A stretch of 64,000 bases of DNA from Blastocatellia bacterium (GCA_035275065.1 DATENM010000129.1:13409-77408); one strand, 5' to 3'. Numbered from the stretch's first letter, positions 11,317 to 51,561 are shown. Made by a program: numbers and translations. The notes: a model not told the origin generated them from the sequence alone.

Positions 11317-14300
11317 TTAACTTGAGACGACACGACGCCGGACTTGCTTCAACTGCTGATGAAGCGCGCTTTCGTATTTCGCCGCCACGCGGCTCTGGTA
11401 ATGCCTGCCGGCCATTCGCAGGTGCTCATCGAGCGCCCGCAAGCTGAGGCCCGGCTGCCTCGTCGCCCTTTCAAGGACCGCTCGAAAGGACTCGCATAGA
11501 TCGGCTATAGTGCCGGCTTCAAACAGGTCGCCGTTATACTCGAAGTTGCCGCTGATGCCCGCCGCGCCATCTACGAAGTGGACGGCCAGATCGACTTTGG
11601 CGGCCTGCGAAACCGTCTCGAGCGGAGTCAGCGTGGCGGCGGGCAGTTTCACGGTCGGCAAAGCGCCGGCGTGCAGACCGAACCAGACGCGGTACAAGGG
11701 AGAATGGTTGACCGTGCGTTCCGGCGCAATGGCCGCCACCAGCCGCTCGAATGGCAGGTCCTGGTGAGCGTATGCCTGTAGGGCCACGTCGCGGACGCGC
11801 CCGAGGAGTTGGCGGAAGGTCGGGTTGCCGGACAGATCGACCCGCAAGACCAACGTGTTGACGAAGAAACCGATGAGCCGCTCGAACTCGGCGCGGTTGC
11901 GCCCTGCGATGGGCGACCCGACCGTGATGTCGCTCTGCGCCGTGTAGTGGTGGAGCACCACAGAGAACCCCGCCAGCAGGGCCATAAACAGTGTGCTTCC
12001 CTCTTTCCGGGCGAGCCTTCTGATTTCGTCTGAGAGTTCTTTCGTGAGAGTCAGTTTTTCAAACGCCGCGGGGCTTACACTCCGCCGCGGGCGCGGCCTG
12101 TCGGCGGGCAGTTCAAGCTCGGCAGCCGGCCTGGCAAACTGCTGCTGCCAGTACGCAAGCTGGCTTCGCAGAAGGTCGCCTCGCAATTGCCGGCGCTGCC
12201 ACAGGGCGAAATCCGCGTACTGAACCGGCAGCGGCGCTAGCGGCGAGGCGTTGCCCGCCAGATAGGCCCGGTAAAGGGCAGCCAACTCGTCCAGCAAAAC
12301 TCCGAGCGACCACGCATCACTGATAATGTGGTGCAGCGTCAGCAGCAACAGGCTCTCGTCGGCTGACGAGCGCAGCAGGCGCACGCGTAGCAGTGGCCCC
12401 TGCTTGAGGTCGAAAGGGCGTCGAGCTTCTGCCGCCGCCAGCTCGTCAGCCTTGCCGGCTGCCACGCTTCCCATATCAACCAGCGGCAGCCCGATTTGCG
12501 CCGCCGGCTGTATGACCTGCGCGAGCTGGCCCTGGCGTTCTCTAAAAACGGTTCGCAAGGCGCTGTGGCGGAAGGCAATCTCTCTGACCGCCTGCTCCAG
12601 CGCAAAGCGATTCAGAGAGCCGACCAGGCGAAACGCAACCGCGATATTGTAGGCCGGATTGCCCGGCGTCAACTGGTCCAGGAACCACAACCGCTGCTGA
12701 CCGAACGAGGGCGGAAAGTCCGCCTCCTCGTTGGCCGGAGCGGCCGGCTCTGAAGGCGGCTCATCAACCGGCCTCGTCAGCTCGGCGGCTGCCAGCAGGG
12801 CGAGCCTGGAGATACTTTCCTCCTGCAAAAAGGCCGACATGGGCAAGAAAATCTTCAACCCCGTCTCGATCTCATTTTGCAGTTCCATCGCCTTCAGCGA
12901 ATCCACTCCGAGCCGCATCAGCGGTTGCTGCAAAGGCAACTGGCCGGGCGCCAGTCCCAGCAGCCGTGCCACTACACTTTGCAGGTGGCGCTCCAGCCGC
13001 AGCCGCCGTTGAGGTTCCGAATCAAGGGCCAGCAACTCTTCACGGGAGACCGTCGGCTGATCTGATTCGACAGGCAGGTCGCCCGGCTCTGTGACCAGGC
13101 TCGATTCAATCGCGTTTAGTGCGCCGGCCAAGAACGCTTCGCGGCAGGCCGAGCGCTGCACTTTGCCGCTCGAAGTCTTGGGCACGCTGCCCGGTTTGCT
13201 TAAAACGACCGCGTGCGCCTGGACCTCATGCGCTTCGGTCACTGCCCCGCGGATGGCCTCGGCGACCTCGTGCAAGTCCGCTTCCTGATACTGCCGCTCG
13301 ATCTCTTGAACGATGACCAGTCGCTCTTCGCCGCCGACCTCCACGGAGAAAGCGGCGCCGCCGCCGGGCCGCGCCGCCGGATGACAACGCTCGACGGTGA
13401 ATTCAATGTCCTGCGGATAATGATTGCGACCGCGAATGATGATCAGGTCTTTCGAGCGCCCGGTCACGTACAACTCGCCATCCTCGATGACGCCCAGATC
13501 GCCGGTGCGCAGGAAAGGGCCTGCGCCGCTGTCGGCCAGATAAGCCTTGAAGGTGCGACGCGATTCGTCAGGCAGGTTCCAGTAGCCGGCGGCGACGCTC
13601 GCCCCCGCGACCCAGACCTCGCCGACGTGGCCGGTCGGACATTCCGTCAGAGACAGTGGATCGACGATCCTGATTCGCCCGCCCGCGCCGCTCTCCCCGC
13701 AACTCACCAGATGGCGCGCGTCGGCGTCTTCAGCCGCCGCCGGCTCCAGGCGGTTTCGTTTGAGGGCTTCGCCACGGACCGATTTAATCGTCGGCCCGCC
13801 CCCGCTCTGACTGCCTGAAACGAACAGGGTGGCCTCGGCCAACCCGTAGCAGGGGTGAAAGGCCGTGGGGCGGAATCCGCAGGGCGAAAAGGCGGCGGCG
13901 AACTGGTCGAGCGTCTGTTTGCGTATCGGCTCGGCCCCGCAGTAGGCCGTCTCCCAGGTGCTCAAGTCAATGGCTTCGCGTTGCTCGGCGCTGACCTTAC
14001 GCGAGCACAGGGCGTAGGCGAAATCCGGCCCGCCGCTGGTCGTCGCCCGGTAGCGCGATATGGTTTCGAGCCACGCCGAGGGGTTTTGCAGAAAGGTCGT
14101 CGGCGACAACAGGATGCAGCGCGCGCCGGCGTATAGCGTTTGCAGCACGCTGCCGATCAGTCCCATGTCATGGAATAGCGGCAGCCAGCAGACGATGATT
14201 GACGCTTCAGTCTGTCGAAAGGCGTGCTTAATCAGGCGCTCGTTGTCGAGCAGGTTCTCATGCGTCACCATCACGCCTTTCGGCGTTGCCGTCGAGCCTG

Positions 14301-14847
14301 ACGTATACTGGAGGAAGGCCAGTGTATGTCCGGCCACAGAAGGCCGCCGCCAGGTGTCCGCCCATTCGTCTTCAATGGCATCGACGGCGCAGATCGCCGC
14401 CTTCCGTCCTGCCCCCGCCTCGCGCAGCCACTGTATCTGCGGCAGCAGGCGGCTGGCGGTGAGAATGATCGCCGGCGACGCGTTTTCGATGATGGCTTCG
14501 ATGCGGCCAAGGCGCCGGTTGGAGCGCGGCGGGTAGGCGGGAACGGCCACCGCCCTGGCATAGAGGCAGCCGAAGAAGGCCGCGATGTAATCAATGCCGG
14601 ACGGAAAGAGCAGTAAGACGCGCTCATCGGCGGCCCTGCGGGATTGCAGCCATGCGCCGATGGCCCGCGCCCGCCGGTCCAGCTCGCTGTAGGTCATGCA
14701 GGCTGCCGGCGTCCTCGCATCGGCGAGGAAGGTGTAGCCCGCTCGCTCGGCCTGCGCCGCGGCCCTGTGGCGTAGCAGCTCGACGAGGTTGAGCGGCTCA
14801 AGGTCCGGCACCAACCGGCGGTCTGACGTGGACACCGTGTTCTTCAT
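11317..14847 (-). CDS. Lipoinitiation protein: fatty acyl-AMP ligase (FAAL) - ACP - condensation domain
   Basis: 1176 aa. FAAL N-terminus (TYSELDRRARAIGAWL, FLQYTSGSTATPKGVMVTHENLL, insertion-containing FadD32-like pattern). Carrier domain LMRLGVDSLKAMEL. C domain with HHIISDAWS plus C1/C4 motifs (QQRLWFLDQL, YADFALWQ). Confidence 0.85.
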   Translation of the reverse strand: MKNTVSTSDRRLVPDLEPLNLVELLRHRAAAQAERAGYTFLADARTPAACMTYSELDRRARAIGAWLQSRRAADERVLLLFPSGIDYIAAFFGCLYARAVAVPAYPPRSNRRLGRIEAIIENASPAIILTASRLLPQIQWLREAGAGRKAAICAVDAIEDEWADTWRRPSVAGHTLAFLQYTSGSTATPKGVMVTHENLLDNERLIKHAFRQTEASIIVCWLPLFHDMGLIGSVLQTLYAGARCILLSPTTFLQNPSAWLETISRYRATTSGGPDFAYALCSRKVSAEQREAIDLSTWETAYCGAEPIRKQTLDQFAAAFSPCGFRPTAFHPCYGLAEATLFVSGSQSGGGPTIKSVRGEALKRNRLEPAAAEDADARHLVSCGESGAGGRIRIVDPLSLTECPTGHVGEVWVAGASVAAGYWNLPDESRRTFKAYLADSGAGPFLRTGDLGVIEDGELYVTGRSKDLIIIRGRNHYPQDIEFTVERCHPAARPGGGAAFSVEVGGEERLVIVQEIERQYQEADLHEVAEAIRGAVTEAHEVQAHAVVLSKPGSVPKTSSGKVQRSACREAFLAGALNAIESSLVTEPGDLPVESDQPTVSREELLALDSEPQRRLRLERHLQSVVARLLGLAPGQLPLQQPLMRLGVDSLKAMELQNEIETGLKIFLPMSAFLQEESISRLALLAAAELTRPVDEPPSEPAAPANEEADFPPSFGQQRLWFLDQLTPGNPAYNIAVAFRLVGSLNRFALEQAVREIAFRHSALRTVFRERQGQLAQVIQPAAQIGLPLVDMGSVAAGKADELAAAEARRPFDLKQGPLLRVRLLRSSADESLLLLTLHHIISDAWSLGVLLDELAALYRAYLAGNASPLAPLPVQYADFALWQRRQLRGDLLRSQLAYWQQQFARPAAELELPADRPRPRRSVSPAAFEKLTLTKELSDEIRRLARKEGSTLFMALLAGFSVVLHHYTAQSDITVGSPIAGRNRAEFERLIGFFVNTLVLRVDLSGNPTFRQLLGRVRDVALQAYAHQDLPFERLVAAIAPERTVNHSPLYRVWFGLHAGALPTVKLPAATLTPLETVSQAAKVDLAVHFVDGAAGISGNFEYNGDLFEAGTIADLCESFRAVLERATRQPGLSLRALDEHLRMAGRHYQSRVAAKYESALHQQLKQVRRRVVSS

Positions 14848-14872: not shown

Positions 14873-16870
14873 TTATCGGCGCGCCGGCGGGCTCAGCTTG
14901 ACGACCCGTTTGGTCCACAAGCGGATGATCTCGTCAACCTGCGCCTTTTTGCCGTCGCCGCTGCCGTGGCGGTCGAGTAGCCTGCCCAGGCTGGCCTTGC
15001 CATCGGCGCTCGACAGCACGGAGAAGACTTCGGGGCTGACTTCAATCTGAAAGCGTTGATCGTAGGTGTTGCTGATCTTGCAAGCCGTGCGCGTCTGGTT
15101 ACTGGAGACATAGCCTTTGACCTGCTGCATGCGGGTGTACAACGGCATGGAAGGGATCATATCCAGGTAGGCTAGATAGTCATGCTCTCGTCTGCGCACC
15201 AGATAATTCCCCACGACCAGGTAATGCAGGCTCGTCGTCAGAAAGCAGACCACGGCGTCCTGGGCGGAATCGACAATCGGCTCGACGTTGTTATTGAAGG
15301 ACGTGTTGAGGAGCACGGGGACGCCGGTGAGTTTGCCGAACTCGTTGATCAAGTTCCAGAACGGCTCGTTAGTCGCTTTGGAGACCGTGTGGACTCTGGC
15401 GCTGCCATCAACATGGGTGACGGCCCCGAGCAGCGCCTGTTTGTCTTTCCGCACACGCACCACAAAGACCATGAAGGGGAGGCGCGCCTGGCCGGCGGGC
15501 AAGTCAAAGTAATCGCCGGCGCACTCTTCCAGGACCGAGGGCGCAAAGGGCCTGAAGCCTTCACGCTTCTTGACCATCGCGTTGATAATGTCTTTGTTTT
15601 GAGCCGGCCTCGGGTCGGCCACGATGCTGCGGTTGCCGAGCGCACGCGGGCCAAATTCCGAACGGCCTTGAACCCACCCGATGATCGCGCCGTCGGCGAG
15701 CAGCGCCGCCGCGCGCGCGGCTATATGATCGACGCGCTCGTACTCGATCAATCGCCGCCAGGGCCATAACGTCGCGGCGATGAGCGCGTCGTCGCCGACG
15801 TCGGTTCCCAGGTAAACATGCTCCAGGCGGCGTGCCTTACCGGCCGGGTGGTTTTCGCGGTAGACCTGTAAGGCGGCGCCGATGGCCGTGCCCGCGTCGT
15901 GCGCCGCCGGCTGCACGAAGACATCCGAAAACAGGCCCGAATAAAGAATCTTCCCATTCAGCGAGCAGTTGTGCGCGACCCCGCCGGCCAGGCAGAGATT
16001 GCGCTGGCCGGTCTTTCTCCTGAAGTATCTCAGCAAGTGCAGGACGATCTCTTCCAGAGACTCCTGCAAAGCCGCCGCCACGTCCATGTGGAGCTGGGTG
16101 ATCGCCTCGGCCTTCTTGCGCGGCGGCACCACGTCGTACAGGGCCTCCAAACGCTCCTTATGCAGGGCGTAGCCGCCGTTCGGCATCAGGCTGTAAAAGG
16201 TCTTGAACAGGTCACGAAACCTGCCGGGGTCGCCGTAAGGGGCCAGCCCCATCACCTTGTACTCCTCAAACTCTTCAAACCCCAGATACCGGATGACGTC
16301 ATCATAAAACCAGCCGAGGGATTTCGACGTCGGGATGGTGTTGATGACCGACAGGTGCGGGCCTTCTGCCTGCAAGAGCATGCCGGCTATCCCATCGCCG
16401 TGGCCGTCAATCGTGAGGATCAGGCTCTGCTCGAACCCCGACAGCGCAAAGGCGCTGACGGCGTGGGCCATATGATGATGGACGAAGGTCATTTTATCGT
16501 CGGCGATTGTGAAACCCAGTTCCTCGTTGAATATGCGCCGGATTAACCCCCTGGCGTCGGTAAAGTCCGACTGGCGGTGGTGCAAGTGATGGCGCTTGAG
16601 GAAGCCATTCAGGAACCCTTCCGTGCCGAAGAAGGCGACCCGGTCCACGTCATTGAGGCTGACTTTCGCACTGTCGAGGCAGAAGCGTATGGCCGCCGCC
16701 GGGGCCTTATTCGTATGCTTGATTCGATTGAGCCGCTCCTCTTCGATGGCGGCAACGATTCTGCCGTCATCAACCAGGGCGGCGGCGGCATCGTGGAATG
16801 AACCTCGACTGACCGGGTAGTGATCTTCGTAGACGAGATTCATGCCGCCCGAAATTCCCAAGACTAGCAT
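14873..16870 (-). CDS. NodU/CmcH-family carbamoyltransferase (paralog 1)
   Basis: MLVLGISGGMNLVYEDHYP...AAALVDDGRIVAAIEEERLNRIKH N-terminus and the VHHHMAHAVSAF metal-binding motif (Kae1-like domain) plus a YrdC-like C-terminal half. Start taken at the internal ATG (MLVLGIS, RBS GAGAGGAA), since the track ORF begins at TTG 16951. Confidence 0.8.
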   Translation of the reverse strand: MLVLGISGGMNLVYEDHYPVSRGSFHDAAAALVDDGRIVAAIEEERLNRIKHTNKAPAAAIRFCLDSAKVSLNDVDRVAFFGTEGFLNGFLKRHHLHHRQSDFTDARGLIRRIFNEELGFTIADDKMTFVHHHMAHAVSAFALSGFEQSLILTIDGHGDGIAGMLLQAEGPHLSVINTIPTSKSLGWFYDDVIRYLGFEEFEEYKVMGLAPYGDPGRFRDLFKTFYSLMPNGGYALHKERLEALYDVVPPRKKAEAITQLHMDVAAALQESLEEIVLHLLRYFRRKTGQRNLCLAGGVAHNCSLNGKILYSGLFSDVFVQPAAHDAGTAIGAALQVYRENHPAGKARRLEHVYLGTDVGDDALIAATLWPWRRLIEYERVDHIAARAAALLADGAIIGWVQGRSEFGPRALGNRSIVADPRPAQNKDIINAMVKKREGFRPFAPSVLEECAGDYFDLPAGQARLPFMVFVVRVRKDKQALLGAVTHVDGSARVHTVSKATNEPFWNLINEFGKLTGVPVLLNTSFNNNVEPIVDSAQDAVVCFLTTSLHYLVVGNYLVRRREHDYLAYLDMIPSMPLYTRMQQVKGYVSSNQTRTACKISNTYDQRFQIEVSPEVFSVLSSADGKASLGRLLDRHGSGDGKKAQVDEIIRLWTKRVVKLSPPARR

Positions 16871-17135
16871 GTGGATTCCTCTCGCTTGCCCGCTATTCGC
16901 GCCGTCTGAATCAGGGTAGGCTTGCCGGGCGAGACTGGGGCACCGGCCCAACAGGCCGATGGCCTGCCGCCGAAACGGTCGCGGTCGGCACGGGTGGTCT
17001 GACTGTCAATGTCGGCCCGCCCGTGCCCTGCTCCCGTGAGTCAAACGGCGTGAGCCAGGGCCGGACACGTTACAGCCCCGTAGGGCGGCCCCGATGCGCC
17101 CCACAGTCTCGCGCGGGGCCGGTGGCGTGCCGCCT

Positions 17136-17614: not shown

Positions 17615-20098
17615 CTAATCATCAGTGACGCCGGCCACAATGGTCATCAAAGGAGCTGCCGACGTATTCAGCCCGCCCTGATGCGGATAAATTCCCGCCC
17701 CGCCATCTCCGCCTTCCGGCGAGGCGCGATCTAGCTTTTCCAGCACGACGACTTCATTCGGCAGCGTGACGACGGCGGCGCTGACCGCTCCCGAGCTGCC
17801 GGTCTTGAACTCGACGGCGTACCCGGGAAGCCGCTTGAGATAGAACTCCGTCGCCGAGGTCCTGACCAGTGCGAAAGGCGGTTGACCGGGCGTCGAAACG
17901 GCCAGGCGGTCGCCTTCCAGACTGACCGTCATCAGCTTGTCAAGCGTCCTGTAGGTGCCGACGAAGGGCTCGCCAGAGGCCGCCAGGTTATCGCCCGCGA
18001 CCGGCGCGCGAAAGAAGACCTGGCGGTTGCCGAGGCGATTGCCCTGAAACAGCGCCAGCACATTGACGCGCCCTCTGCGATCCGGCAGAAAGGCGAACTG
18101 GTAGCCCGACATGGTGCCGCCGGCCACCTCGAACAGGTCGCCGTGGCGGCGCTTGAGCGGCGAAGAGATCTTCGACCTGATAGCCGCCCCGCTCCCCAGG
18201 GTCGCCCGCAACCCATCCTTTTGCATTTCGACGACCACGCGGCCATGGCGTTCATGCTCAAAGGTGCCGACATAGCCGTGCAGTGATCGCTCGCGGACAG
18301 GCTCATCGCCTTCCGGCCCTCGTTTTTCGCCCGCTGCCGCTTGCAGGGTTTCACTGATCTGGCGCGTCAGGCGCTCAGGCCAGGCCACCTCCTGGCGCTC
18401 AAACAGGATCTCCCGCCGCTTCGTCACGGTCTGGTTTTCCAGCACGCAGAAGTCGATTCCCGTCGATAGCAGCGTGTTCAGCGCGTCTTGCGGGGTCTCG
18501 ACAATCGGTTCGCCGGCAACATTGAAGGAGGTGTTCAGAATGATCGGCACCCCCGTCTTTTCGTAGAACCGTTTCGCCAACTGATACAGCGAGCCGTTGG
18601 CCTCGCGTGTGACGGTCTGTAAACGGCCAGTGCCATCGACATGCACGACCCCCGGAACCTGCGCCTGCTTGTCGTCATGGAATTTGCAGATGCGCAGCAT
18701 GAAAGGGCTGTGCGGGCATGCGCCGTCCAGGTCAAACCACTCCCTGACGTTCTCCAGCAACACGACCGGAGCAAAGGGGCGAAACGATTCGCGGTGCTTG
18801 ACCTGATGATTCAAGACGTCTTTGGCTTCGGGCCGGCGGGCATCGCAAAGTATGCTACGCTGCCCTAGCGACCGCGGGCCGAGTTCGGAGCGGCCTTCGA
18901 ACCAGCCGACGATCTTCCCCTCGCACAAGCGGTCGATGGTCTCGGCAATGGGGTCTTCGCAATCCAGCGGCTCGACCGCCGGCGTCTCGGCGATGGCCGC
19001 GCGTATTTGCGCCTGCGTGTAGGGCCGACCGACCGCATCGTGGACCAGCCGCTTGCGCGTGTTGTTTTTCGTCAGGTGCCACAGGCCGTAGTAAGCCGCG
19101 CCGATGGCCGTGCCGCTGTCCTCGGCTGCCGGAATGATGTACACATTCTTGAATGGCGACTCGCGCACGATCCTCTCGTTGGCGACGCTGTTGAGCGCCA
19201 CGCCGCCCGCGTAGCACAGGTTGTCGTTCGGGCAGAGTTCGTAGAGGCGCTCAGTGAGCCGCAGCACCGCCTCCTCCAGCGCCGCCTGCACCGACGCCGA
19301 CAGGTTGGCGTAAGCTTCTTGCCGCAAGGGCCAGCGGTCATCATGGCGGAAGCGTTTCGTCACCTCGTCGTGGAAAAGGAAACGGCCATCCTCAATGTGG
19401 AAAAATTCTTCGGCGGCGATCTCCGGCTTGCCATAAGGGGCTAGTCCCATGACTTTGCCGGCCTCGTGGAGGTCTCCGAAGATCTGATGAGCGACCGCCG
19501 CGTACATGCCGCCGAGGCTGCCGAAGGTCCGCATCCCGCTCGGCTCTTTGCCGACCCAGGCGAAGTCTTCGACCAGATGTTTCTCAAGCGGCTTGATGGC
19601 GGTGCCGGCGGCGGCGTAGAGCGAGATGGTTTCCCAGCCATCTGCCACGGGCCAGCGGCAGGCCGCCTGCTCTTCCGCCGTGAAATCTTCAAAGGGTGAG
19701 CCAACGCCGTCGAGAACCAGGACCGCCGCCTCGGCAAAGCCAGAGGTGGCGAAGGCGCTGAAGGCGTGACCATAGTGATGCGGGATATAGATCACAGGCG
19801 TCTGGTGCGCGCGGGTCCGCAGGGCCGGGTTCAACGACAGGTCCTGCTCGGAGACCTTCGCGCGGTTGGTCACGCAACTGACGACGAGGCTGAGGTCGCC
19901 CGGCCCGATGCCGGCGTAGTCAAGGCAGTATTCAATGGCGAGCGAGGGGTAAGCCCCATAGATGGCGGCCCGCTTGATGCGATTGAGCCGCTCCTCCTGA
20001 ACCGCCGCCACGATCTCGTCGCCCTTTAGCAGGCAGGCCGCGCCGTTGTGCGGCGACGCGCTGATGCCGAGAACCCACAAGTTGTTTTCGCTGGTCAT
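17615..20098 (-). CDS. NodU/CmcH-family carbamoyltransferase (paralog 2) with ~270 aa C-terminal extension of unknown function
   Basis: LWVLGISASPHNGAACLL...VAAVQEERLNRIKR, IYIPHHYGHAFSAF. Residues ~560-827 have no counterpart in paralog 1 and no motif I recognise. Confidence 0.8.
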   Translation of the reverse strand: MTSENNLWVLGISASPHNGAACLLKGDEIVAAVQEERLNRIKRAAIYGAYPSLAIEYCLDYAGIGPGDLSLVVSCVTNRAKVSEQDLSLNPALRTRAHQTPVIYIPHHYGHAFSAFATSGFAEAAVLVLDGVGSPFEDFTAEEQAACRWPVADGWETISLYAAAGTAIKPLEKHLVEDFAWVGKEPSGMRTFGSLGGMYAAVAHQIFGDLHEAGKVMGLAPYGKPEIAAEEFFHIEDGRFLFHDEVTKRFRHDDRWPLRQEAYANLSASVQAALEEAVLRLTERLYELCPNDNLCYAGGVALNSVANERIVRESPFKNVYIIPAAEDSGTAIGAAYYGLWHLTKNNTRKRLVHDAVGRPYTQAQIRAAIAETPAVEPLDCEDPIAETIDRLCEGKIVGWFEGRSELGPRSLGQRSILCDARRPEAKDVLNHQVKHRESFRPFAPVVLLENVREWFDLDGACPHSPFMLRICKFHDDKQAQVPGVVHVDGTGRLQTVTREANGSLYQLAKRFYEKTGVPIILNTSFNVAGEPIVETPQDALNTLLSTGIDFCVLENQTVTKRREILFERQEVAWPERLTRQISETLQAAAGEKRGPEGDEPVRERSLHGYVGTFEHERHGRVVVEMQKDGLRATLGSGAAIRSKISSPLKRRHGDLFEVAGGTMSGYQFAFLPDRRGRVNVLALFQGNRLGNRQVFFRAPVAGDNLAASGEPFVGTYRTLDKLMTVSLEGDRLAVSTPGQPPFALVRTSATEFYLKRLPGYAVEFKTGSSGAVSAAVVTLPNEVVVLEKLDRASPEGGDGGAGIYPHQGGLNTSAAPLMTIVAGVTDD

Positions 20099-20168: not shown

Positions 20169-22595
20169 CTACAGCTTTTCCTTGGGCGCCGCCAGAATCA
20201 GGGTTTCTTTCGTCGCTTCCGCCACCGCCGCCCGGCTGAAAGCAAAGGCAGGCGGCTTGACTGTCTGCCAGCTCTCAAGCTGGTCCTTCCAGTGCGGGCT
20301 GGCCGGGTCGCCCGACTCGCCGAGCGGGATGCCCTGTCGCGTGTCATCCCAGTTACTGAGGTCGGCGATCAAGCGCATGGAGACCAGCGCCCCGCGGTTG
20401 ACTGTGTAGTTGCCGCCGTTCTGCGGCACCGGCTCGACGGCGAACTTAGAGCCGACCGAGGGCAGCCCGGCCAGCGGGTGCTGGAAGCGCACCTGCGCCA
20501 AGCGCCCCCAGGTCCATTGCGCGCGGTTGGTGCCGAGCCGCTTCGTGATCAACTCCTGGGCGTCCTTGTAGACGGCCAGGTAGAGCGCCTGGTAGGAGTC
20601 AAATTCCTTGGGCAGCCACTCGCGCGGTTGCGTCGTGATGACGCGATTCAAGAAGGTGCCCGAACCCGACCACGCGTATCGCTTCGCCAGCTCGTCGCCG
20701 AGCGTGCCGGCGAGGATGCGCCGCAGCAAGGCATCGCGCATGGCGGCTGAGAGCGCGCTCGAATCCGCTGACAGTGTCGCGTCGCTCCCCTTCAGCGCGC
20801 CCAGCAGGTCCTGCCATTCAGGTGAGCTCTCCTGGAGCGGCTGCCCGATCCTGGCCAGCTCGGCGACGAAGGCGGCGTCCGGATACGAGTAGGTATCGCC
20901 CTGAATGGCGCGGAAGTCTTCGACGCTCAGCTTCTCTTTGGCCGTCAGCAGCTCGTAGATACGGCGGGCACGGTAGGGGGCGGCCCAGTTGTCGGTGATG
21001 TAGTAGGGATAATCGCTGCCCACCAGACGATTGTTGGCGGTGACGATGATCCCTGATGGCGGGTCATAAACATGCGGCGTCGAGTCAAAGGGGATGTATC
21101 CGGTCCAATCGCCCGCGTCGGTCGCCCCATCGTAAGGAGTGGTGCCGTGACCTGTCTTCCGGATCGGGTAGCGACCCGCCGCCCAGTAACCGATGTGGTC
21201 GTTGACATCGGCGTAGATGAAATTCAGGGGGAAGCCCGTATAGCCGCTCAGCGCCGTCCGAAATTCGTTCCAGTTGCGCGCCCGGTTGATCTGGTAGTAG
21301 GCCTCAAACTCGTTCGCCGCCGGGTCGAGCGTCGGCCAAGCCACCGCATAGCGTGCGCCATCTTTTTCGAGCAGGACCGGCCCGTGCCGCGTCACCACGA
21401 CCTCGACCGCGACCGGCTCGGCGGCCGGGTCGGTCGGGCTCTTTCTGACCTTTATCTCCTCAGAGCGCGTTTCGGCCTCGCGCCACCCCGTCGGGCTCTG
21501 ATAGCGCCGCGGGTTGTCGGGGTCGAACTTTTCAAGGTAGACATCCTGGACGTCGGCCTCAACGTTGGTGATGCCCCAGGCGATGGCGTCATTGTGGCCG
21601 ATGAAGACGCCTGGGTTGCCGGCGACGGTGACCCCGGCGACGTGTAGGCCGGGCGCGCTCAACTCGATCATATACCAGATGGATGGTGCCGAAGGTTGCA
21701 GGTGCGGGTCGTTAGCCAGAAGCGGCTTGCCGGTCACGCTGTGCCGTCCACTCACCACCCAGTTGTTGCTGGCCGCCAAGTCCTCCGCGTAAACCCCTAC
21801 GCGCTGCAACGAGCGGTTCAGAGTTTCGGTGATCTCGGAAATCTCGCTGAGCATTTCCGCCGACGCGGCGCGGTCAGGGCGGGCGGGCGGGCGATCATTG
21901 ACGGCTACACGCTTGTTGACCGCCTTATCGCTGCCGACCATGATGAGGTCGAGCGGCGAGGTGCTGGGCAACAGGTCGTTCACGCGTTCGGGCGGCAGGC
22001 CGGCGAAGGCGTCGCGCATCATATCCGTCTGCCAGGTGCTGCTCAGTGTCTCAGCAAACAGTTTACCGATCATCAGCGAGTCTGCCGGACGCCAGGGCCG
22101 CGGCTTGTATTGAAGCGTGCGGAACTCTAGCGGCAGGCTGTCCTTGTCCAGCGCAGCGATGTAGGCATTCACCCCGTTCGCGTAAGCTTCCAGCGAGGCG
22201 CGCACGGGCGGAGACAATCGCCCGACCAGTTGCTCGGCGAGCGCCGCGAAGCCAAAGGCCCGCCGCCGCTTGTCCTCTTCGAGCGCATTCTGTCCAAGAA
22301 TTTCGGCCAGCTCCCCGGCTGCCGTGCGGCGCAGCAAATCCATCTGCCAGAGGCGGTCAGAAGCCACCACATAGCCTTGGGCAAAGTACAGGTCATCCTG
22401 ATTCGCCGCCTCGACGTGTGGGACGCCGCGTTCGTCGCGCCTGACGGTCACGTCGGCGCGCAGCCCGGCCACCTCCAGGGTGCCGGATTTTGCCTGCGCC
22501 CTCATGGCGACCGAGCGCGCGCAGGCCCACTGCATGGACAGCGCTATGGCCGCTAAGCCAAGCGCCAGACAGAAGCATAGCTGATGTTTCTTCAT
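20169..22595 (-). CDS. Secreted Ntn-hydrolase, penicillin acylase / AHL-acylase (S45, PvdQ-like) family
   Basis: Signal peptide MKKHQLCFCLALGLAAIALSMQWACA (start moved to ATG 22595, RBS GGAGAA). The beta-subunit nucleophile motif SNNWVVSG follows a spacer region. Other family motifs include LYFAQGYVVASDRLWQMD. Confidence 0.8.
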   Translation of the reverse strand: MKKHQLCFCLALGLAAIALSMQWACARSVAMRAQAKSGTLEVAGLRADVTVRRDERGVPHVEAANQDDLYFAQGYVVASDRLWQMDLLRRTAAGELAEILGQNALEEDKRRRAFGFAALAEQLVGRLSPPVRASLEAYANGVNAYIAALDKDSLPLEFRTLQYKPRPWRPADSLMIGKLFAETLSSTWQTDMMRDAFAGLPPERVNDLLPSTSPLDLIMVGSDKAVNKRVAVNDRPPARPDRAASAEMLSEISEITETLNRSLQRVGVYAEDLAASNNWVVSGRHSVTGKPLLANDPHLQPSAPSIWYMIELSAPGLHVAGVTVAGNPGVFIGHNDAIAWGITNVEADVQDVYLEKFDPDNPRRYQSPTGWREAETRSEEIKVRKSPTDPAAEPVAVEVVVTRHGPVLLEKDGARYAVAWPTLDPAANEFEAYYQINRARNWNEFRTALSGYTGFPLNFIYADVNDHIGYWAAGRYPIRKTGHGTTPYDGATDAGDWTGYIPFDSTPHVYDPPSGIIVTANNRLVGSDYPYYITDNWAAPYRARRIYELLTAKEKLSVEDFRAIQGDTYSYPDAAFVAELARIGQPLQESSPEWQDLLGALKGSDATLSADSSALSAAMRDALLRRILAGTLGDELAKRYAWSGSGTFLNRVITTQPREWLPKEFDSYQALYLAVYKDAQELITKRLGTNRAQWTWGRLAQVRFQHPLAGLPSVGSKFAVEPVPQNGGNYTVNRGALVSMRLIADLSNWDDTRQGIPLGESGDPASPHWKDQLESWQTVKPPAFAFSRAAVAEATKETLILAAPKEKL

Positions 22596-22697
22596 GGGGT
22601 TCTCCGCTGAAACTGGAATTGAAGATTCGAGCGACCTCGGCCCGCCGTGCGCCGCCACGGCCAGAACAACCGGGCTTTGCGAGCCGGCGCGGTCAGC

Positions 22698-23300
22698 TCA
22701 GCCGTGGGCTTCGGCAGTGGCGATCAGGTCAATATCGTCCGGCACCCTGAATTGCAGGGTGCCGACACAAAACGCTTCCCAGTCCGGGGTGACCTGATTG
22801 AAGATGACGTTCTCGTTGTGCCACATCGACTCGGTAACCGTGAAATCCTGGTGAATGAAAACAACGCTTTCCTCGTCAAAGGCGGCTTCGCTGCCCTGGC
22901 CGTTAGGCTTCTGCTTCCAGTTGATCCGCCCTTCGCTCCAGGCCGGGTACTGCCTGAGATCTCCCAGGTGATAAGCCTTACAGTATTGGCGCGGCGGGCG
23001 GGCGGGCTTCTCCCCGGGGTAGCTGTCTTCAACCTCTCTGAGGAACTTGACCACCGACAGCCGACCGGCGGCCAGGGCGATCATGTAGGGCGTCCGGTGG
23101 TCACGCCCGGTTTTGAAGACGTCGGCGCCGCCATTGACCAGCCGCTTGACCAGCTCCAGGTCTCCCTTCCCCGCGGCGAAATTGAGCGGGGTCCATCCCT
23201 GCTCGTCCTGCTGGTTCAGGTCAGCTCCGGCCCCGATCAGCCTGTCCACTTCGGCGAGGTCGCCGGCCTTGACCGCCTCGATTAATCCCAAATCTTGCAT
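22698..23300 (-). CDS. Ankyrin-repeat protein with C-terminal domain of unknown function
   Basis: 2-3 ANK repeats (GADLNQQDEQGWTPLNFAAGKGDLELVKRLVNGGADV ... RTPYMIALAAGRLSVVKFL), then a ~90 aa unassigned region. Strong RBS AAGGAGGGAG. Confidence 0.65.
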   Translation of the reverse strand: MQDLGLIEAVKAGDLAEVDRLIGAGADLNQQDEQGWTPLNFAAGKGDLELVKRLVNGGADVFKTGRDHRTPYMIALAAGRLSVVKFLREVEDSYPGEKPARPPRQYCKAYHLGDLRQYPAWSEGRINWKQKPNGQGSEAAFDEESVVFIHQDFTVTESMWHNENVIFNQVTPDWEAFCVGTLQFRVPDDIDLIATAEAHG

Positions 23301-23436: not shown

Positions 23437-24039
23437 TCAATCTCCGGCACCGGCCTCCACCCTTGCGAGGTGTCCGGTGCCTGCCAGGGTGCTCAAGTCG
23501 ATGTCGGCAATGCACCTGACCTTAACGTAATCGAGCGAAAGACCACCTTCGAGGTGGACGGGGCCGCTGCCTTGGTCGAAATCGGCCCGGCTGAAATCGC
23601 AAGCCTCACGGTCCAACCTGACGCCGAGTTCCGTGCCCCCCCTCGTGTCGGTGAACTTGATGTGAACGTAATTTCGGTCAATGGCCTCCTTAAACAGCTT
23701 CACCGTCCTTTCGGGGCGCAGGCCGGCTTCGACCGGGTGGTCGGCTTCGCAAAGGCGCTCGACCAGGCTCTTCTCCTCAGGCGCGGCGGGCGCGGGCGCG
23801 GCGGGCGGCGGCGGATTCTTAGCCATCTCCTCCATCTTTTTGCGCAGGCTGAGCGGCCTCATGTCGGTCCACACTTCTTTGATATAGGCCAGGCAGTCGG
23901 CTTTCGGCCCGACCTTTCCGGCGTCGCGCCACCCGAGGGGGTTCTCTTTGTACTCCGGCCATATCGAGTATTGTTCTTCATGATTCACGACGACCTTGTA
24001 GATGGTCGTGTCTTCTCTGTCGGCATCGTTCCAGCTCAT
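23437..24039 (-). CDS. MbtH-like protein fused to a C-terminal ~115 aa domain of unknown function
   Basis: [64 protein letters not shown] matches the MbtH signature (YxVVxNxExQYSxWP, GW, WTDxRP). A Pro/Ala-rich linker ([12 protein letters not shown]) precedes the unassigned C-terminal domain. Start at the second ATG (RBS GGAGGT, 7 nt). Confidence 0.75.
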
Positions 24040-24144
24040 CTTTTCAACCTCCGTAATTGAGATGTTCATCTGGTGGCTCCAGGCGATGGAGCCGTGATCA
24101 GTCGTTTGCGCGCCGTGCGGCTCGGCGCGCGGCGCGGCGGGCGG

Positions 24145-25854
24145 CTAGGCGGTCGGCGTAGCCATCTCCCTTTCCATTCGCCCCGACGGCTCCGGGCGTT
24201 TGTCGTACTCCAGTTGGCCGCTCTCCAGCTTAATGATGCGGTCGGCGAGATGGTAGAAGCGGTCATCGTGGCTGATGACGATGAGCGTTTTACCCGCCGC
24301 CTTAAGCTCGGGCAGGATTTCGCAATAGAAGAATCGCTTGAACACGGGGTCCTGGTCGGCGGCCCACTCGTCGAAGATGTAGAGTGAACGGTCTTCAAGG
24401 TAGGCCGTCAGCAGCGCCAACCGCTTTCGCTGCCCCGAAGACAGGTCGAGCGAAGAGAGCCGCCCGTCGGCGACCTCGACTTTGTGGTCCAGTTGCAGCC
24501 GGGTCAGGTAGTACTGTGCCCTTGCACTCTGGTTCTCCGAATCGATCCCCAGCAGGCGATCAAATAGAAAGTAATCGGAAAAGATGGCGGTAAAATTCTG
24601 GCGGTACTGGTCGCGGTTGTGGTTCGCCACCGGGGCCCCGTCCAGCCGAATCTCTCCCGACTCCGGGGCGTAAAGACCGGCGAGCAGCTTCGCCAGCGTC
24701 GTCTTGCCGCTGCCATTGCCGCCGATCAGGAAGATTAGCTCGCCGGGGCGGAAGGATAGGTCGAGCGGGCCGACGGTGAAGCTGTGTGCCCCTTGATCGG
24801 ACTTGTACTGATGCGTGATGCCGATCAGGTCAAGCCGCCTCCAGGGCGGTGCCGGCCCGGACAGTGGCGCGGCTTCGGGTTCCGACGATTGGTTCCCCAG
24901 TGAGAGGCCGAGCGCCTCGATTTTTCGGAAGGCCACCTGCGCCCGCCCCAGGTTAGGCAGCGTGTTCAGGACCGCCGCCAGCGGTCCATTCATATAGAGA
25001 ATCGTCAGCGCGTAGCCGGTCAGCACATGGCGGTCTACACTGAAGAAGATCGGCGAGACGAACAAGACCAGCCCGATGAAGATGAAGAACAGGACTTGCC
25101 CCAAATTGGCGGCGGCGAAACTGTAAGAGCTGCCGCTGACGCTGAGCCGGCGAATCGCCTCCATGTCGGGGTCGAGCTGCTGGGCGAAGAAGGCCCGGCG
25201 GCGCGCGCCATGGAGCTTCAATTCCTTGCTCCCATCCGTCAGCGCGCGCAGCGACTTGAACAGCGCGTCCCACTCCTCGCGCAAGGCCCGGAAATGAGTC
25301 AGCGCCTTTGCAAAGGGGACCTGATAGCTGAGAATGCCGACCGCCATGTAAATGATCACCGACAGCAGAAGCGGGCGCGAGAGCCAGCCCAGGTAGGCCA
25401 GGCAGCCGGCGATGATCGCCAGTTGGGCCAGCAGGACCGGCAGGCTGGAGATGGTCGTCGTCACCGCCGATATGTCGTCGGTGAGCGTGGCGAACAGGCG
25501 GTGCGTTCCGAGTTCTTCGAGCACCCGGAAGGGCGCTGAAAGCATCTGCCGGCACAATCGCCGTCTGATGTCGTAGGCCGCCCTGGCCGTCAGGCGGACC
25601 AGCAGGACCTGCGAGATGTAGGCGCTCGCAGGGATGAAGAGGCACAGCCCGACGAACATCGCCAGCAGCCGCATGCGCGAGCCCGGCGCGCCCAGCAGGA
25701 TGGCGTTGATGACGCCGATCAGCGCCGTATTGCCAAGCCCGGCCAATACGCCGGAGGCGATGATCAGAACCACGGTCCGCCGCGACCCGTTAACCTGGCG
25801 AGACCAGTGGAACAGGACCGGGAAGACTCGGAATAGATCGCGGATGACTTTCAT
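24145..25854 (-). CDS. ABC exporter, fused TMD-NBD, cyclic-peptide (SyrD/YojI-like) transporter family
   Basis: N-terminal multi-TM region; NBD with Walker A GGNGSGKTT, signature LSSGQRKRLAL, Walker B LYIFDEWAADQD. Confidence 0.8.
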   Translation of the reverse strand: MKVIRDLFRVFPVLFHWSRQVNGSRRTVVLIIASGVLAGLGNTALIGVINAILLGAPGSRMRLLAMFVGLCLFIPASAYISQVLLVRLTARAAYDIRRRLCRQMLSAPFRVLEELGTHRLFATLTDDISAVTTTISSLPVLLAQLAIIAGCLAYLGWLSRPLLLSVIIYMAVGILSYQVPFAKALTHFRALREEWDALFKSLRALTDGSKELKLHGARRRAFFAQQLDPDMEAIRRLSVSGSSYSFAAANLGQVLFFIFIGLVLFVSPIFFSVDRHVLTGYALTILYMNGPLAAVLNTLPNLGRAQVAFRKIEALGLSLGNQSSEPEAAPLSGPAPPWRRLDLIGITHQYKSDQGAHSFTVGPLDLSFRPGELIFLIGGNGSGKTTLAKLLAGLYAPESGEIRLDGAPVANHNRDQYRQNFTAIFSDYFLFDRLLGIDSENQSARAQYYLTRLQLDHKVEVADGRLSSLDLSSGQRKRLALLTAYLEDRSLYIFDEWAADQDPVFKRFFYCEILPELKAAGKTLIVISHDDRFYHLADRIIKLESGQLEYDKRPEPSGRMEREMATPTA

Positions 25855-25966
25855 CAATTAAGCCCTTTACGGTCTGGCGCGGCGGCGCGCCGCCATGACT
25901 CAAGGAGGGTTGAAGCGCAGAAAAGGCGGGCCACCCAGGGCGCGCCGCTCCGCTAGAGACTGCCGT

Positions 25967-27096: not shown

Positions 27097-30000
27097 CTAG
27101 GTCGTTTCTGCGGCCGGCAGGAGTGCGGCGGCCTCTTCAAGACAGTCTCTCATCTGTTGGGCGAGCACGCGCACCTGCGGCTCTCGCATAACCGTCCAGT
27201 GCGGGCCGGCGATCTCGCGCAGGCTCAGCGGCTCACTGGAAAGGCGGCTCCAGGCGGCCTCCCTATCCGTCTCCGACTCGACCTGAAACAAGGTGATCTT
27301 GCCGGGATAGACCTTCGCCTCGTACTCGCCGAACGCCTTGATGCGCGACATATAGCCCTTCACATAGTTGCTCAGATAAGCCAGGCCGCTCTCCCGCTCA
27401 AGCCCCTCGGCGATAAGCCCCCAGCGCTGCAAGCGCTCCAGCGCGTGGCTGTAGAGTTCGACACGATTGAGCGACGCCAGCCCTTCTTCGCGGACAAAGA
27501 GGTCCCGTTCCTCGGCCGGGGCCAGAGCCTGCAAAGCCTTTAACAGGAAGACGGCCTCGTCCTCATGGCGCGGCTTCACGCGAGCCGACCACGGCGCGAC
27601 CGAGTCGACGAGAGCCAGCAAGCCGACCGGCTGATTTTGGCGGGTCAGTTGTTGGGCCATTTCAAAGGCCACGGCGCCGCCCCAGGAGAATCCCCCCAGC
27701 CAGTAAGGCCCCGCGGGTTGAACTTCGCGGATGGCGTCGAGGTACCGAGTCGCCACTTCTTCCAGGGACCGGTTGTCGTCAACCGGCGCGGCCCCGAGAG
27801 GGGCTTGCAGCGCGTAGAAAGGCTGGTCGTCGCCGAGCAGCCGGGCGAGCTGGTAATACTCCAAGACCTCGCCGCCGATGGCGTGGACGAAGAATAGCGG
27901 CGGGCGGCTCCCCTCGCGGTGGAGTGCCACGAGTGGCGAATAACGGCGCGGTGTCACCTTCTCCTGCAACAGCTTCGCCAGGTTGGCGATATTCCCCTCC
28001 TGCATCAGGACGTTGAGGGTCAACCGCTGGCCGAATTGCTTTTCGATCTGGGAAGCCAGCCTGACCGCCGACATCGACGTGCCGCCGAGGCTGAAGAAAT
28101 TATCCCTGACCCCTACAGATGCGACCCCGAGCACTTTTTCCCACATCTGCATGAGTTGCATCTCCAGCAGGGTGCGGGGGGCCGTCTCTTGCCCCGGCGC
28201 GGCGGTAGCGGCAGGGGCCATTTTCGCCAGGGCGATGCGATCCACCTTGCCGTTTGGCGTCAACGGCAGGCGCTCGACGATCACCAGGCCGGCAGGAACC
28301 ATGTAGTCGGGCAACCGCTCCTTCAAATAGCTGATCAACGGCTTGTCGGCCAGCGCGACGCCTGGCCTGGCGACGACGTAGGCCCTTAACCTTGGGTCGC
28401 CGAGCTGGCTGTCGCCGGCAATCACCACCGCCTGCTCAACATCAGGGTGTTGGCTCAAGGCGGTTTCGATCTCGCCGAGCTCGATACGGAAGCCGCGTAT
28501 CTTGACCTGAAAATCGCGGCGGCCGAGGTATTCGATTCCGCCATCCGGCAAGCAGCGCGCGATGTCCCCGGTTCGGTAAAGCCTGCCGCCGGCAACGCCG
28601 CCCAGGTGGTCCGGGACAAAGCGGTCTGCCGTCAGGTCGGGCTTACCCAGGTAGCCTCTGGCCGGCGCTAGCCCGCCGACGTAGAGCTCGCCGTGCGCGC
28701 CGAGAGGGCAGGGGTTGGCGTTGCGGTCCAGCAGGTAGACGCTCGTGCTCGAGATGGGATGGCCTATCGCCACGGGCGAGGTGCCGCCGCGCCATGTCTT
28801 GAGATTGAAGTAGGTGACATCAGCAGCAACTTCCGACGCCCCATACGAGTTCAATAGCTCTCTTCGTGGCAGCCGGTGCTGGAAGGCTTCGGCCAGATCG
28901 GGGCTGAAGTATTCGCCGCTGGTCACCCAGAACCTGAGGGCAGGAATCTGCGTTGCAAGCTCCTGGCCGCTTTCAAAAAGCATCCGCAACAAAGAAGGCA
29001 CCAGGACGATGTGCGTCACTTGCCGGCTGCCCAGATTGCGAATCAGCCGCGTCGGGTCCTTGACCGCTTCTTCGGGGATGATACTCAGCCGCACCCCCTG
29101 AAGAAGCGGCCCCAGGGTTTCAAAGATTGAATCGACAAAGCTAATGATCGTCTTCTGGCAGCAGATGTCGCCTGGCTGAAACGGGTGTTCGGCCCACATC
29201 CATTCCAGCCGGTTCAGCGTCGCCGTGTGCGACGCGACGACACCTTTGGGCGTCCCCGTCGAGCCCGACGTGTAGATCACATAGGCCGCATTGTCACCCC
29301 CAGCCGGCGAATCGAGGTTCGATGAAGGCGCTTCGGAGATCAATTGCCAATCGGTGTCCAGGCAGATGGCCTGCGCACGTTCGGCGGGGATTCGTCCGGC
29401 CAGCCGCCGCAAGCTTAGGACGAGGGCCGCGCCGGAATCTTCAATCAGGAAGCGCAGCCGCTGGTCAGGCTGCGAAGGGTCCATAGGGATAAAGGCCGCG
29501 CCCGCTTTCAAGGTGCCGAGGATGGCGACCACTAGATCGACCGAGCGCGGCATACAAATGCCGACAAAGCTCTCGGCCCCCGCCTGGAACCCGCGCAGGT
29601 AGTTCGCCAGTTGATTGGCCCGCCGGTTCAGCTCGCCATAGGTCAACTGCCGCTCGTCATCTTCGATGGCAATCGCCTCGGGCGTCTGCGCCACCTGCGC
29701 CTCGAATACTTCACTCAAGCAACGGTCTCGCCGGTAAACGCCCACGGCCTGATTCCATTCGATCAACAGCCGGTGCTTCTCCGCTGCGGATAACACCTCG
29801 ACGGCGACCAATGGCAGGTCGGGGTCGGCGACCGCCTGCGTCAACAAGGTCGCGTAGTGCCTGACCATGCGCTGGACGGTCGTGGCGTCGAACAGGTCGG
29901 TGTTGTATTCGAACGACACGCCGATCCGGTCCGGCATCTCGGCCATCGTCACGGTCAGGTCGAACTTGGCCTCATCAAACTTCGCCTGCTGCTTGCCGGC

Positions 30001-31284: not shown

Positions 31285-31336
31285 AAAGGTTCTCTGAATG
31301 GGCAGACGATGGGCGGCCTTCGTTTCTGCATCACCG

Positions 31337-45043: not shown

Positions 45044-51561
<6,518 letters not shown>

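Follow-up and report, generated by a model that had tools for sequence, protein, structure and literature searches.

A probable lipopeptide acylase, predicted to be exported, in a FAAL-primed biosynthetic gene cluster of Blastocatellia

Introduction

Why would a gene cluster that begins its peptides with a fatty acid also carry an enzyme that looks able to take such a group off again outside the cytoplasm? The question is raised by a stretch of 64,000 nucleotides from an uncultured soil bacterium of the class Blastocatellia (Acidobacteriota; GCA_035275065.1, DATENM010000129.1:13409-77408; hereafter the window), in which a gene for a penicillin-acylase-family N-terminal nucleophile (Ntn) hydrolase, here called the acylase, is found among nonribosomal peptide synthetase (NRPS) genes and close to a gene for lipoinitiation by a fatty acyl-AMP ligase (FAAL). 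An earlier note, made from the sequence alone, had placed the enzyme in the PvdQ/N-acyl homoserine lactone (AHL) acylase family on the strength of its signal peptide and its SNNW motif, and had proposed that the acyl chain is installed for assembly and export and then removed in a pyoverdine-like prodrug or maturation logic, with self-resistance or quenching of AHL signals as alternatives. From the combined analysis presented here, the acylase is probably a Sec-exported Ntn hydrolase dedicated to a FAAL-primed lipopeptide pathway, in which it would remove the fatty acyl group in the periplasm after export.

Results

The acylase gene and its product

The strand of the acylase gene, which the earlier note did not give, is the minus strand, and the gene and the parts of its product are laid out as follows.

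20169..22595, minus strand: acylase coding sequence, 808 amino acids plus stop, PF01804 Ntn hydrolase precursor
22601..22605, minus strand: Shine-Dalgarno-like GGAGA, 5 nt 5' of the ATG at 22595, from direct reading of the sequence
22515..22595, minus strand: predicted export signal, about residues 1-27, consisting of MKKHQ, a hydrophobic core at 6-20 and then ..QWACA followed by RS, with the cleavage predicted between the A and the R (from hydropathy and conservation in the clade)
21771..22514, minus strand: alpha subunit and spacer peptide, about residues 28-275, with the low-confidence segment 227-241 within the spacer
20172..21770, minus strand: beta subunit, residues 276-808, starting at the Ser276 nucleophile (SNNW)

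Counted from a GTG start at 22658, the open reading frame spans 20169..22658 and the ATG at 22595 is internal to it (MKKHQLCF...). The ATG is preferred over the GTG because GGAGA precedes it by 5 nt; gene callers also chose it in two independent assemblies of the same sequence, and the N-termini of the homologues agree with it. An identical protein is on record at NCBI for a Blastocatellia metagenome-assembled genome, and the gene is found on a 94.7-kb contig (k141_246357) of ENA assembly ERZ27257050. The match to PF01804 (Penicil_amidase) covers residues 48-792 and profile positions 1-674 of 675, at 692.5 bits and an E-value of 1e-207 (cutoff 21.3). The acylase gene is real and complete and not a chance open reading frame, and the plus-strand reading frames that overlap it are the usual by-product of a GC content of about 64%. 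The end-to-end profile match, together with the intact SNNW, upholds the assignment to the penicillin acylase family of Ntn hydrolases.

An export-type N-terminus was present, as had been claimed, and by hydropathy and charge a basic n-region and a hydrophobic core were found in the acylase and in every full-length member of the clade to which it belongs (see below). The AlphaFold2 model shows an N-terminal helix at residues 2-28 and a linker with low predicted local distance difference test score (pLDDT) at 20-34. The pattern ..W-A-C-[AGT]-R-[SA] around the predicted cleavage site is kept by the ten nearest homologues and is compatible with an AxA-type site for signal peptidase I. By the canonical lipobox rule the conserved Cys25, preceded by Q and W at positions -3 and -2, is a poor fit to a lipobox, and the signal may be one for signal peptidase I or for signal peptidase II.

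The SNNW motif occupies residues 276-279, and its role as the beta-subunit nucleophile is borne out by the alignment of Ser276 with residue 1 of the crystallised beta chains 4hsr_B and 6nvx_B; it also aligns with Ser282 of D-succinylase. The site between Ala274-Ala275 and Ser276 is conserved in the homologues, the spacer stretch 227-241 that precedes it is modelled with low confidence, and residues 35-194 are covered by matches to the alpha chains of penicillin G acylase and glutaryl acylase. Invariant across 138 aligned homologues were Ser276, Asn277, Trp279, His298 (beta23), Leu299 (beta24), Asn521, Arg542 and Arg545, with Asn344 nearly so; among these, His298, Asn344, Asn521, Arg542 and Arg545 correspond in the alignment to the beta23, beta69/70, Asn-beta241 and Arg-beta263 positions of penicillin G acylase numbering. 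The model as a whole has a pLDDT of 86.4 and a predicted TM-score (pTM) of 0.86, and Foldseek related it with a probability of 1.00 to D-succinylase, cephalosporin acylases and penicillin G acylases, all of the Ntn alpha-beta-beta-alpha fold. The enzyme thus looks catalytically competent and exported, and autoproteolysis is predicted.

Linkage of the acylase to the FAAL-primed cluster

Most of the window is made up of one long minus-strand series of biosynthetic genes. Two neighbours on which the earlier note relied, a FAAL-ACP-C lipoinitiation protein and a cyclic-peptide ATP-binding cassette (ABC) exporter two genes away, were both confirmed, and the acylase gene is framed by two further genes that recur in related clusters.

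11317..14847, minus strand: FAAL-ACP-C lipoinitiation protein, the starter C domain catalytically intact (HHIISDAWS)
17615..20098, minus strand: carbamoyltransferase of the NodU/CmcH type with a C-terminal DUF3471, directly downstream of the acylase
22698..23300, minus strand: ankyrin-repeat protein, 200 amino acids, without a signal peptide, directly upstream of the acylase
24145..25857, minus strand: cyclic-peptide exporter of the ABC type, with permease and ATPase in one chain (TIGR01194, 500 bits, cutoff 286.2)

PvdE and SyrD belong to the TIGR01194 family, and the genes separating the transporter from the acylase are the ankyrin gene and an MbtH-like gene. The gaps flanking the acylase gene measure 102 nt and 70 nt. 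The minus-strand gene run containing the acylase showed no terminator-like site on that strand, which is weak evidence, and the promoter and terminator scan between the cluster genes stayed at background level.

The same arrangement was found in related loci, designated here by L or P numbers. Orthologues with identities of about 85-86% (L003), 74% (L004), 70% (L006) and 63-64% (L007/L008) are located in the same cluster and in the same slot, between the ankyrin gene and the carbamoyltransferase gene. The ankyrin gene is kept beside the acylase in L003, L004, L006 and L007, a trait of the FkbH-type clusters, and the carbamoyltransferase follows the acylase in these four loci, at the P0030 place and in L095. 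Elsewhere the surroundings are rearranged and the pairing is retained: L014 has the ABC exporter, the acylase and then a fused FAAL-ACP-C-A-T-E protein after a gap of 130 nt; L094 has the ABC exporter, the acylase and FAAL-ACP with a gap of 147 nt; L095 reads NRPS, ABC exporter, acylase, carbamoyltransferase, FAAL-ACP-C, TauD, NRPS; and the P0030 place reads GT1, acylase, carbamoyltransferase, FAAL-ACP-C, TauD, NRPS. In L014, L094 and L095 the exporter gene is directly upstream of the acylase gene.

In a neighbour-joining tree of 143 sequences all FAAL-linked acylases fell into one clade of 23 members, nested among non-cluster acylases of Blastocatellia and Pyrinomonadaceae. This clade was recovered exactly in 82 of 100 bootstraps, with the housekeeping sequence of L005 inside it in 9; with a thinned taxon set (87 sequences) the exact FAAL-linked clade was not recovered and the support was 50%. 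Only loci flanked by 5 kb or more on each side were counted, and partner genes were scored within 10 kb. All seven clade loci carry FAAL-ACP, NRPS and the cyclic-peptide ABC exporter, while the 28 loci outside the clade show FAAL in none, NRPS in two and the ABC exporter in none. Across the cluster orthologues the acylase is 85/74/63% identical, about as conserved as the ABC exporter; the FAAL protein (73/63/53%) and the terminal NRPS module (76/62/54%) have diverged further.

These data bear directly on the reading that the enzyme is a general acylase, for AHL quorum quenching, beta-lactam turnover or turnover of other N-acyl amides, which merely happens to be located in the cluster. Relatives at 59-67% identity do occur in non-NRPS contexts throughout Blastocatellia and Pyrinomonadaceae, such as L005 (67%, beside carB), L009 (59%, among isoprenoid and housekeeping genes) and L096 (64%), and sharply diagnostic substitutions between the two groups are absent. 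The adjacency to FAAL, NRPS and ABC genes nevertheless survives several rearrangements, down to 61-64% identity, the association is specific to the clade (7/7 against 0/28), and no LuxI/LuxR-type genes were present among the scanned open reading frames of the window. A general acylase is therefore the least probable of the explanations weighed here, and the AHL-quenching alternative of the earlier note is disfavoured by the FAAL synteny. A single-protein scan of a genome collection added four loci, none of them in the FAAL-linked clade, which serve as non-cluster controls.

Because synteny, clade, counts and conservation agree, the acylase is, as judged by comparison of these loci, a conserved pathway component whose gene stays physically linked to those for lipoinitiation and export, and not a passenger; its location inside a FAAL-primed cluster, as proposed at the outset, is borne out by synteny that is specific to the clade and by a pairing kept through rearrangements. 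The best explanation of the tree would be recruitment from a ubiquitous non-cluster acylase lineage of Blastocatellia, independent of the PvdQ lineage.

Strict co-inheritance with the lipoinitiation genes, taken together with the predicted periplasmic location, could also be read as self-protection, the acylase inactivating a membrane-active lipopeptide in the envelope of its producer. Lipopeptide antibiotics are deacylated by environmental acylases, according to the literature on the acylases for the calcium-dependent antibiotic and aculeacin. Destroying the exported product would however defeat its production unless the deacylated form is the real product, which leads back to removal of the acyl group as a step of the pathway, and the literature searches gave no precedent for a cluster-encoded PF01804 resistance enzyme. 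Self-protection is accordingly regarded as improbable.

Several acylase loci outside the clade were also recorded. In the sister loci L023 and L024 (49% identity) the acylase is part of a different PKS/NRPS (polyketide synthase/NRPS) cluster; in L023 (4336-8254) it stands directly after a TauD gene and a gene for a FeeM-like N-acyl-amino-acid synthase, and in L024 (3886-7681) a TauD gene and a 168-aa open reading frame are found at the corresponding position. In L012 (52% identity) the acylase adjoins a type II thioesterase, an MbtH-like gene and NRPS. From these contexts, the pairing of an N-acylating function with an exported acylase seems to recur in Blastocatellia. L096 (ENA ERZ27257050 k141_2497897) comes from the same metagenome assembly as the window and has a TonB-dependent receptor, MacB-type/ABC transporters and a multicopper oxidase as neighbours; its acylase is possibly a non-cluster copy of the same or a related organism.

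Placement within PF01804

The assignment to the PvdQ/AHL-acylase family held at the level of the PF01804 superfamily and failed at the level of the clade. In a sequence search of the PDB the best match was D-succinylase (E 4e-87 over residues 39-799), followed by an engineered penicillin G acylase (7reo, E about 1e-51) and the beta chain of class III glutaryl-7-aminocephalosporanic acid (glutaryl-7-ACA) acylase (E about 1e-48), whereas PvdQ was matched over only about 190 residues (E 1e-12). In the structural comparison D-succinylase aligned with a TM-score of 0.80-0.85 at 29% identity, and PvdQ came at rank 49, behind cephalosporin acylases, penicillin G acylases and MacQ. The NCBIfam equivalog for PvdQ, NF051460, scored 70.2 bits against a cutoff of 950, with a match limited to residues 251-458. 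Membership in the PvdQ clade was rejected for these reasons, and neither the SNNW motif nor the signal peptide implies it in the face of the NF051460, PDB and Foldseek results. The acylase is, by sequence and modelled structure, of a lineage that is found widely in Blastocatellia and resembles D-succinylase, cephalosporin acylase and penicillin G acylase. The substrates of D-succinylase are N-succinyl-D-amino acids.

PF01804 is the only family matched by the acylase, which is not a membrane-bound S12 peptidase (beta-lactamase fold) of the ClbP/XcnG type. One homologue with 65% identity, P0015, is a protein of 1,243 amino acids in which the acylase domain is joined to M16 peptidase domains (PF00675, PF05193).

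Predicted substrate and acyl pocket

What the acylase would meet in the periplasm was approached through the assembly line, for which the following genes are the most informative.

10010..11233, minus strand: FkbH-domain protein, TIGR01686 at 263.7 bits against a cutoff of 146.65
5309..9931, minus strand: first elongation protein, consisting of a C-like domain, A (DLTKIGHVGK, Asp), T (GGDSI) and E (ESHGR, TVGWF, FNYVG)
27097..31452, minus strand: terminal NRPS module C-A-T-TE, A code VDFVVSSADK, without Asp235

The A-domain codes were read by alignment to a GrsA reference, for which the control returned the known Phe code DAWTIAAICK. The first elongation protein had been annotated C-A-T-C, and its last C domain shows the E-domain motifs; the GGDSI motif of the T domain is typical of those ahead of epimerisation domains. 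The Asp code, as DLTK[IV]GHVGK, also follows the FAAL in L014, L094 and L095. A further minus-strand NRPS gene, starting near 5285 (MTKRNIEAIY...), runs off the start of the window after at least 1,760 amino acids. It encodes C-A(DAWQFGLIQK, Gln-like)-T-E and further sequence, and the assembly line thus extends beyond what the window shows. At the other end of the line the VDFVVSSADK code, identical in L003, L004 and L007, resembles beta-alanine-type codes. From domains and codes the product is predicted to start with N-acyl-D-Asp(-D-Gln...), and the scissile bond is expected to be the amide between the fatty acyl group and Asp.

In the acyl pocket attention was drawn to position 457, which aligns with a Leu in the SLNWYYAD segment of the beta chain of Bacillus penicillin G acylase and with a His in class III cephalosporin acylase, and which corresponds to Ile-beta177 of penicillin G acylase, an acyl-pocket residue. 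The residue is Leu in 23/23 members of the clade and Gln in 77% of the other Blastocatellia acylases. A more hydrophobic pocket would fit a fatty acyl substrate, and the alignment is suggestive of this.

The same N-terminus and the same pocket bear on a different cut. By its starter C, A(Asp) and E domains the predicted N-terminus mirrors the N-acyl-D-Asn prodrug motif known from colibactin and xenocoumacin biosynthesis, where the leader is removed by ClbP and XcnG, both S12 peptidases. The acylase could by analogy cut after D-Asp and release N-acyl-D-Asp, as an Ntn-hydrolase counterpart of these enzymes that evolved independently and convergently. The nearest solved relative is D-succinylase, and as an aspartyl alpha-amide is a 2-(acylamino)succinyl amide, a pocket of the succinyl/glutaryl type could in principle hold the Asp side chain. 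Against such a leader removal, the aligned pocket positions are hydrophobic (Leu299, Phe331, Ile332, Ile342, Leu457), the change at 457 in the clade, from Gln to Leu, leads away from polarity, and in the structural alignment by Foldseek no more than 29% of the residues are identical with D-succinylase. We know of no characterised PF01804 enzyme that cuts after D-Asp to free an N-acyl-D-Asp leader, and leader removal is held to be unlikely.

The N-terminal part of the first elongation protein, about 470 amino acids, is C-like and lacks HHxxxDG, having IAALCGDSAT instead. With this motif missing it resembles the interface domains, which were reported by Reitz et al. in 2019 to recruit beta-hydroxylases. 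In the window and in L003, L004 and L007 the FkbH gene fills the slot that is held by TauD at the P0030 place and in L095, and this may represent a swap of partner enzymes on an interface-type domain. In clusters of the L014/L094/L095 type TauD is found either at the FkbH slot or a few genes upstream of the acylase.

The presence of TauD near the Asp module in related clusters fits beta-hydroxy-Asp lipopeptides of the amphiphilic-siderophore type, and with these a regulated switch comes into question. Lipidated and delipidated peptide would then both be functional and the acylase would set their ratio, by the same enzymology for another purpose; the lipidated form might be a surfactant or membrane-associated, and the free form soluble and metal-binding. 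Precedents are PdnM for pandorachelins (PMC13592322) and BntA/MhtA for marinobactins, whose deacylation is called optional in bioRxiv 10.64898/2026.07.24.740629. Neither the window nor the +/-10 kb flanks of its relatives yielded a TonB-dependent receptor or another gene for iron uptake, and the window's own variant has FkbH in place of TauD. A switch is a less probable reading, and by sequence alone it is inseparable from obligatory maturation. A siderophore product, to which TauD, the Asp code and the beta-Ala-like code might point, was not adopted, given the lack of TonB-dependent receptor and uptake genes in the regions searched; beta-hydroxy-Asp is found in non-siderophore lipopeptides too (PMC12971057).

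Proposed mechanism

Removal of the fatty acyl group after export, the preferred reading, can be laid out as a series of steps. The FAAL-ACP-C protein is predicted from its domains and the A-domain codes to activate a fatty acid and to condense it onto Asp, which after epimerisation would give a peptide initiated by N-acyl-D-Asp. The chain would then be extended by the module with the Gln code and its E domain and finished by the beta-Ala-like terminal module with its TE, with possible tailoring by the carbamoyltransferases, the glycosyltransferase and the luciferase-like monooxygenase. The PvdE/SyrD-type ABC exporter would carry the acylated peptide over the inner membrane. In the periplasm, by analogy with PvdQ, Tem25, PdnM and CcsQ, the acylase precursor would cleave itself between Ala275 and Ser276, and on the same analogy Ser276 would hydrolyse the fatty acyl-Asp amide, setting the fatty acid free and exposing the N-terminus of the peptide. 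What is cut, at which bond, in which compartment and to what end, whether maturation, prodrug activation or a switch between lipid and no lipid, is inferred.

Several points weigh against this reading. All lipopeptide acylases proven by experiment are only distantly related to the enzyme, and its nearest characterised relatives use succinyl, glutaryl or phenylacetyl groups and not long fatty acyl chains. What the product is and whether it is acylated are predictions, as are the scissile bond, the autoproteolysis and the export signal, the last drawn from hydropathy. Support for the clade is moderate and method-dependent, the trees being neighbour-joining trees, and the Fisher test on 7/7 against 0/28 (p = 1.5e-7) overstates independence since the loci are phylogenetically related. 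In no alignment column did the clade differ cleanly from the non-cluster acylases when conservation of 75% or more in each group and leakage below 10% were demanded, and a list of clade-differing columns is obtained with relaxed thresholds alone, so there is no sharp signature of functional change. Neither an outer-membrane exporter nor an uptake receptor was found in the window.

Of the original proposal, the acylate-export-deacylate logic stands as the best-supported reading by virtue of the precedents and the cluster linkage, with prodrug activation as just one of its possible purposes.

Other genes of the window

The minus-strand run begins, in order of transcription, with a NusG-like gene, a PKS (KS-AT-DH-ER-KR-ACP), TubC-dock-Cy-A(Cys)-T, C-A-T, C and TE. 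A plus-strand winged-helix/TPR regulator then breaks the minus-strand run between the TE and the glycosyltransferase. The order continues with the glycosyltransferase, C-A-T-TE, the luciferase-like monooxygenase, the TIGR01194 ABC exporter, the MbtH-like gene, the ankyrin gene and the acylase, after which come the carbamoyltransferase-DUF3471, a small helix-turn-helix gene, a second carbamoyltransferase, FAAL-ACP-C, FkbH, the NRPS annotated C-A-T-C and the further NRPS. Two genes of this series lie close to the acylase and have yet to be described.

14873..16951, minus strand: second carbamoyltransferase, missing from the L007 variant
23437..24069, minus strand: MbtH-like protein, 210 amino acids, with a C-terminal extension of about 140 amino acids

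The extension of the MbtH-like protein is kept in L003, L004, L006, L007 and L024 and has a weak, sub-threshold match to CBF_beta. The small gene between the two carbamoyltransferase genes (about 17136-17603) is of the XRE type. A copy of the ankyrin protein, 51% identical, was found at 12276-12902 of the unrelated acylase-containing PKS/NRPS cluster L023; the protein might be an immunity protein or a chaperone.

Upstream of the FAAL-primed genes, at 35730-51561 (minus), lies a hybrid line of the thiazoline type with the PKS, TubC-dock-Cy-A(Cys code DLYNLSLVWK)-T, C-A-T, a lone C (HQIICDD) and the TE. The reading frames of the lone C domain (36590-38023) and the TE (35730-36905) overlap by about 315 nt in different frames; the TE may begin further downstream, or a single C-TE gene may have been broken by a frameshift or an error of assembly. 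The PKS is preceded by the NusG-family protein (51780-52430, minus), possibly a LoaP-like antiterminator, and between this gene and a tricorn-type protease a 734-aa open reading frame (52813-55017, minus) has a sub-threshold VWA_2 match as its only Pfam signal.

Discussion

Significance

Acidobacteriota are abundant in soil, largely uncultured and chemically almost unexplored, and literature searches on Blastocatellia with NRPS, lipopeptide or acylase found nothing on this system. The comparison of loci points to a whole family of Blastocatellia FAAL-primed NRPS clusters with a dedicated exported acylase. The lipid that would be predicted from the genome may therefore be missing from the mature products, which would affect structure prediction, mass-spectrometry searches and the design of heterologous expression. 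The locus is a well-supported new example and not a new principle; as the principle is already established, its value is that of an example and of comparative evidence. It shows a known pattern again, in another phylum and with an enzyme of another PF01804 lineage, and with its independent origin in the D-succinylase/cephalosporin acylase-like lineage it joins the short list of pathways that acylate, export and deacylate. The enzyme is also a possible N-acyl-D-amino-acid or lipopeptide acylase for biocatalysis. Should leader removal prove true, it would mean prodrug activation by an Ntn hydrolase in Acidobacteriota, built from an acylase lineage that has as its closest characterised relative an enzyme recognising D-amino acids as their succinyl amides.

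Comparison with known systems

The system to which the acylase had been likened is that of PvdQ of Pseudomonas aeruginosa, which strips the acyl chain from the pyoverdine precursor in the periplasm, as cited in PMC13592322. Both enzymes are periplasmic-type PF01804 Ntn hydrolases with a Ser-beta1 nucleophile and a His at beta23, and both accompany an NRPS pathway with a lipoinitiation module of the acyl-ligase type and a TIGR01194-type ABC exporter. They differ in subfamily and in the phylum of the host; the window has no chromophore or pyoverdine genes, and the N-terminal residue is predicted to be D-Asp here as against L-Glu in the pyoverdine system.

The closest relative of the acylase in both solved structure and sequence is instead the D-succinylase of Cupriavidus sp. 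P4-10-C (PDB 7ea4/7eby), with which it shares SNNW and NDPH. At the position equivalent to 457 D-succinylase has a Glu, whereas the acylase has a Leu.

The type of reaction proposed here, removal of an N-terminal fatty acyl group from a nonribosomal lipopeptide by an Ntn acylase, is also that of Tem25, which deacylates telomycin precursors, and of BntA and MhtA, which deacylate marinobactins, as cited in PMC13592322. There these enzymes are assigned to the PvdQ/aculeacin-acylase group of "lipopeptide acylases", while the acylase of the window resembles the other group of that paper, comprising penicillin G acylase, cephalosporin acylase and AHL acylases. A further difference is that BntA and MhtA are encoded outside their cluster.

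For PdnM the delipidation of pandorachelin B was shown genetically and in vitro, and it changes the function of the molecule (PMC13592322). Like the acylase, PdnM is a cluster-encoded Ntn acylase bearing a signal peptide; it is self-processing and acts once the peptide has been exported. A further likeness is that PdnM is regarded as a specialised clade that evolved to serve a single pathway (PMC13592322). As to differences, the enzyme of the window is a canonical PF01804 protein of single architecture with thousands of close relatives.

CcsQ, finally, is an acylase tied to the FAAL-bearing cyanochelin C cluster, the product of which has no acyl chain; its role was assigned from product structure, the context of the biosynthetic gene cluster, phylogeny and modelling and not from an enzyme assay (bioRxiv 10.64898/2026.07.24.740629). 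Compared by description, CcsQ differs in belonging to Cyanobacteria and in being encoded opposite to the biosynthetic genes, in contrast to the same-strand run seen here, and siderophore transport genes, a further contrast, were not seen in this window. A likeness to cyanochelin is found in the beta-Ala-type module predicted in the window and in the Asp/TauD chemistry of related clusters. Both CcsQ and the acylase belong to a FAAL-primed NRPS cluster and group with cephalosporin/GL-7-ACA acylases, away from PvdQ. For each of them the acylases linked to clusters are monophyletic and stand apart from their non-cluster paralogues.

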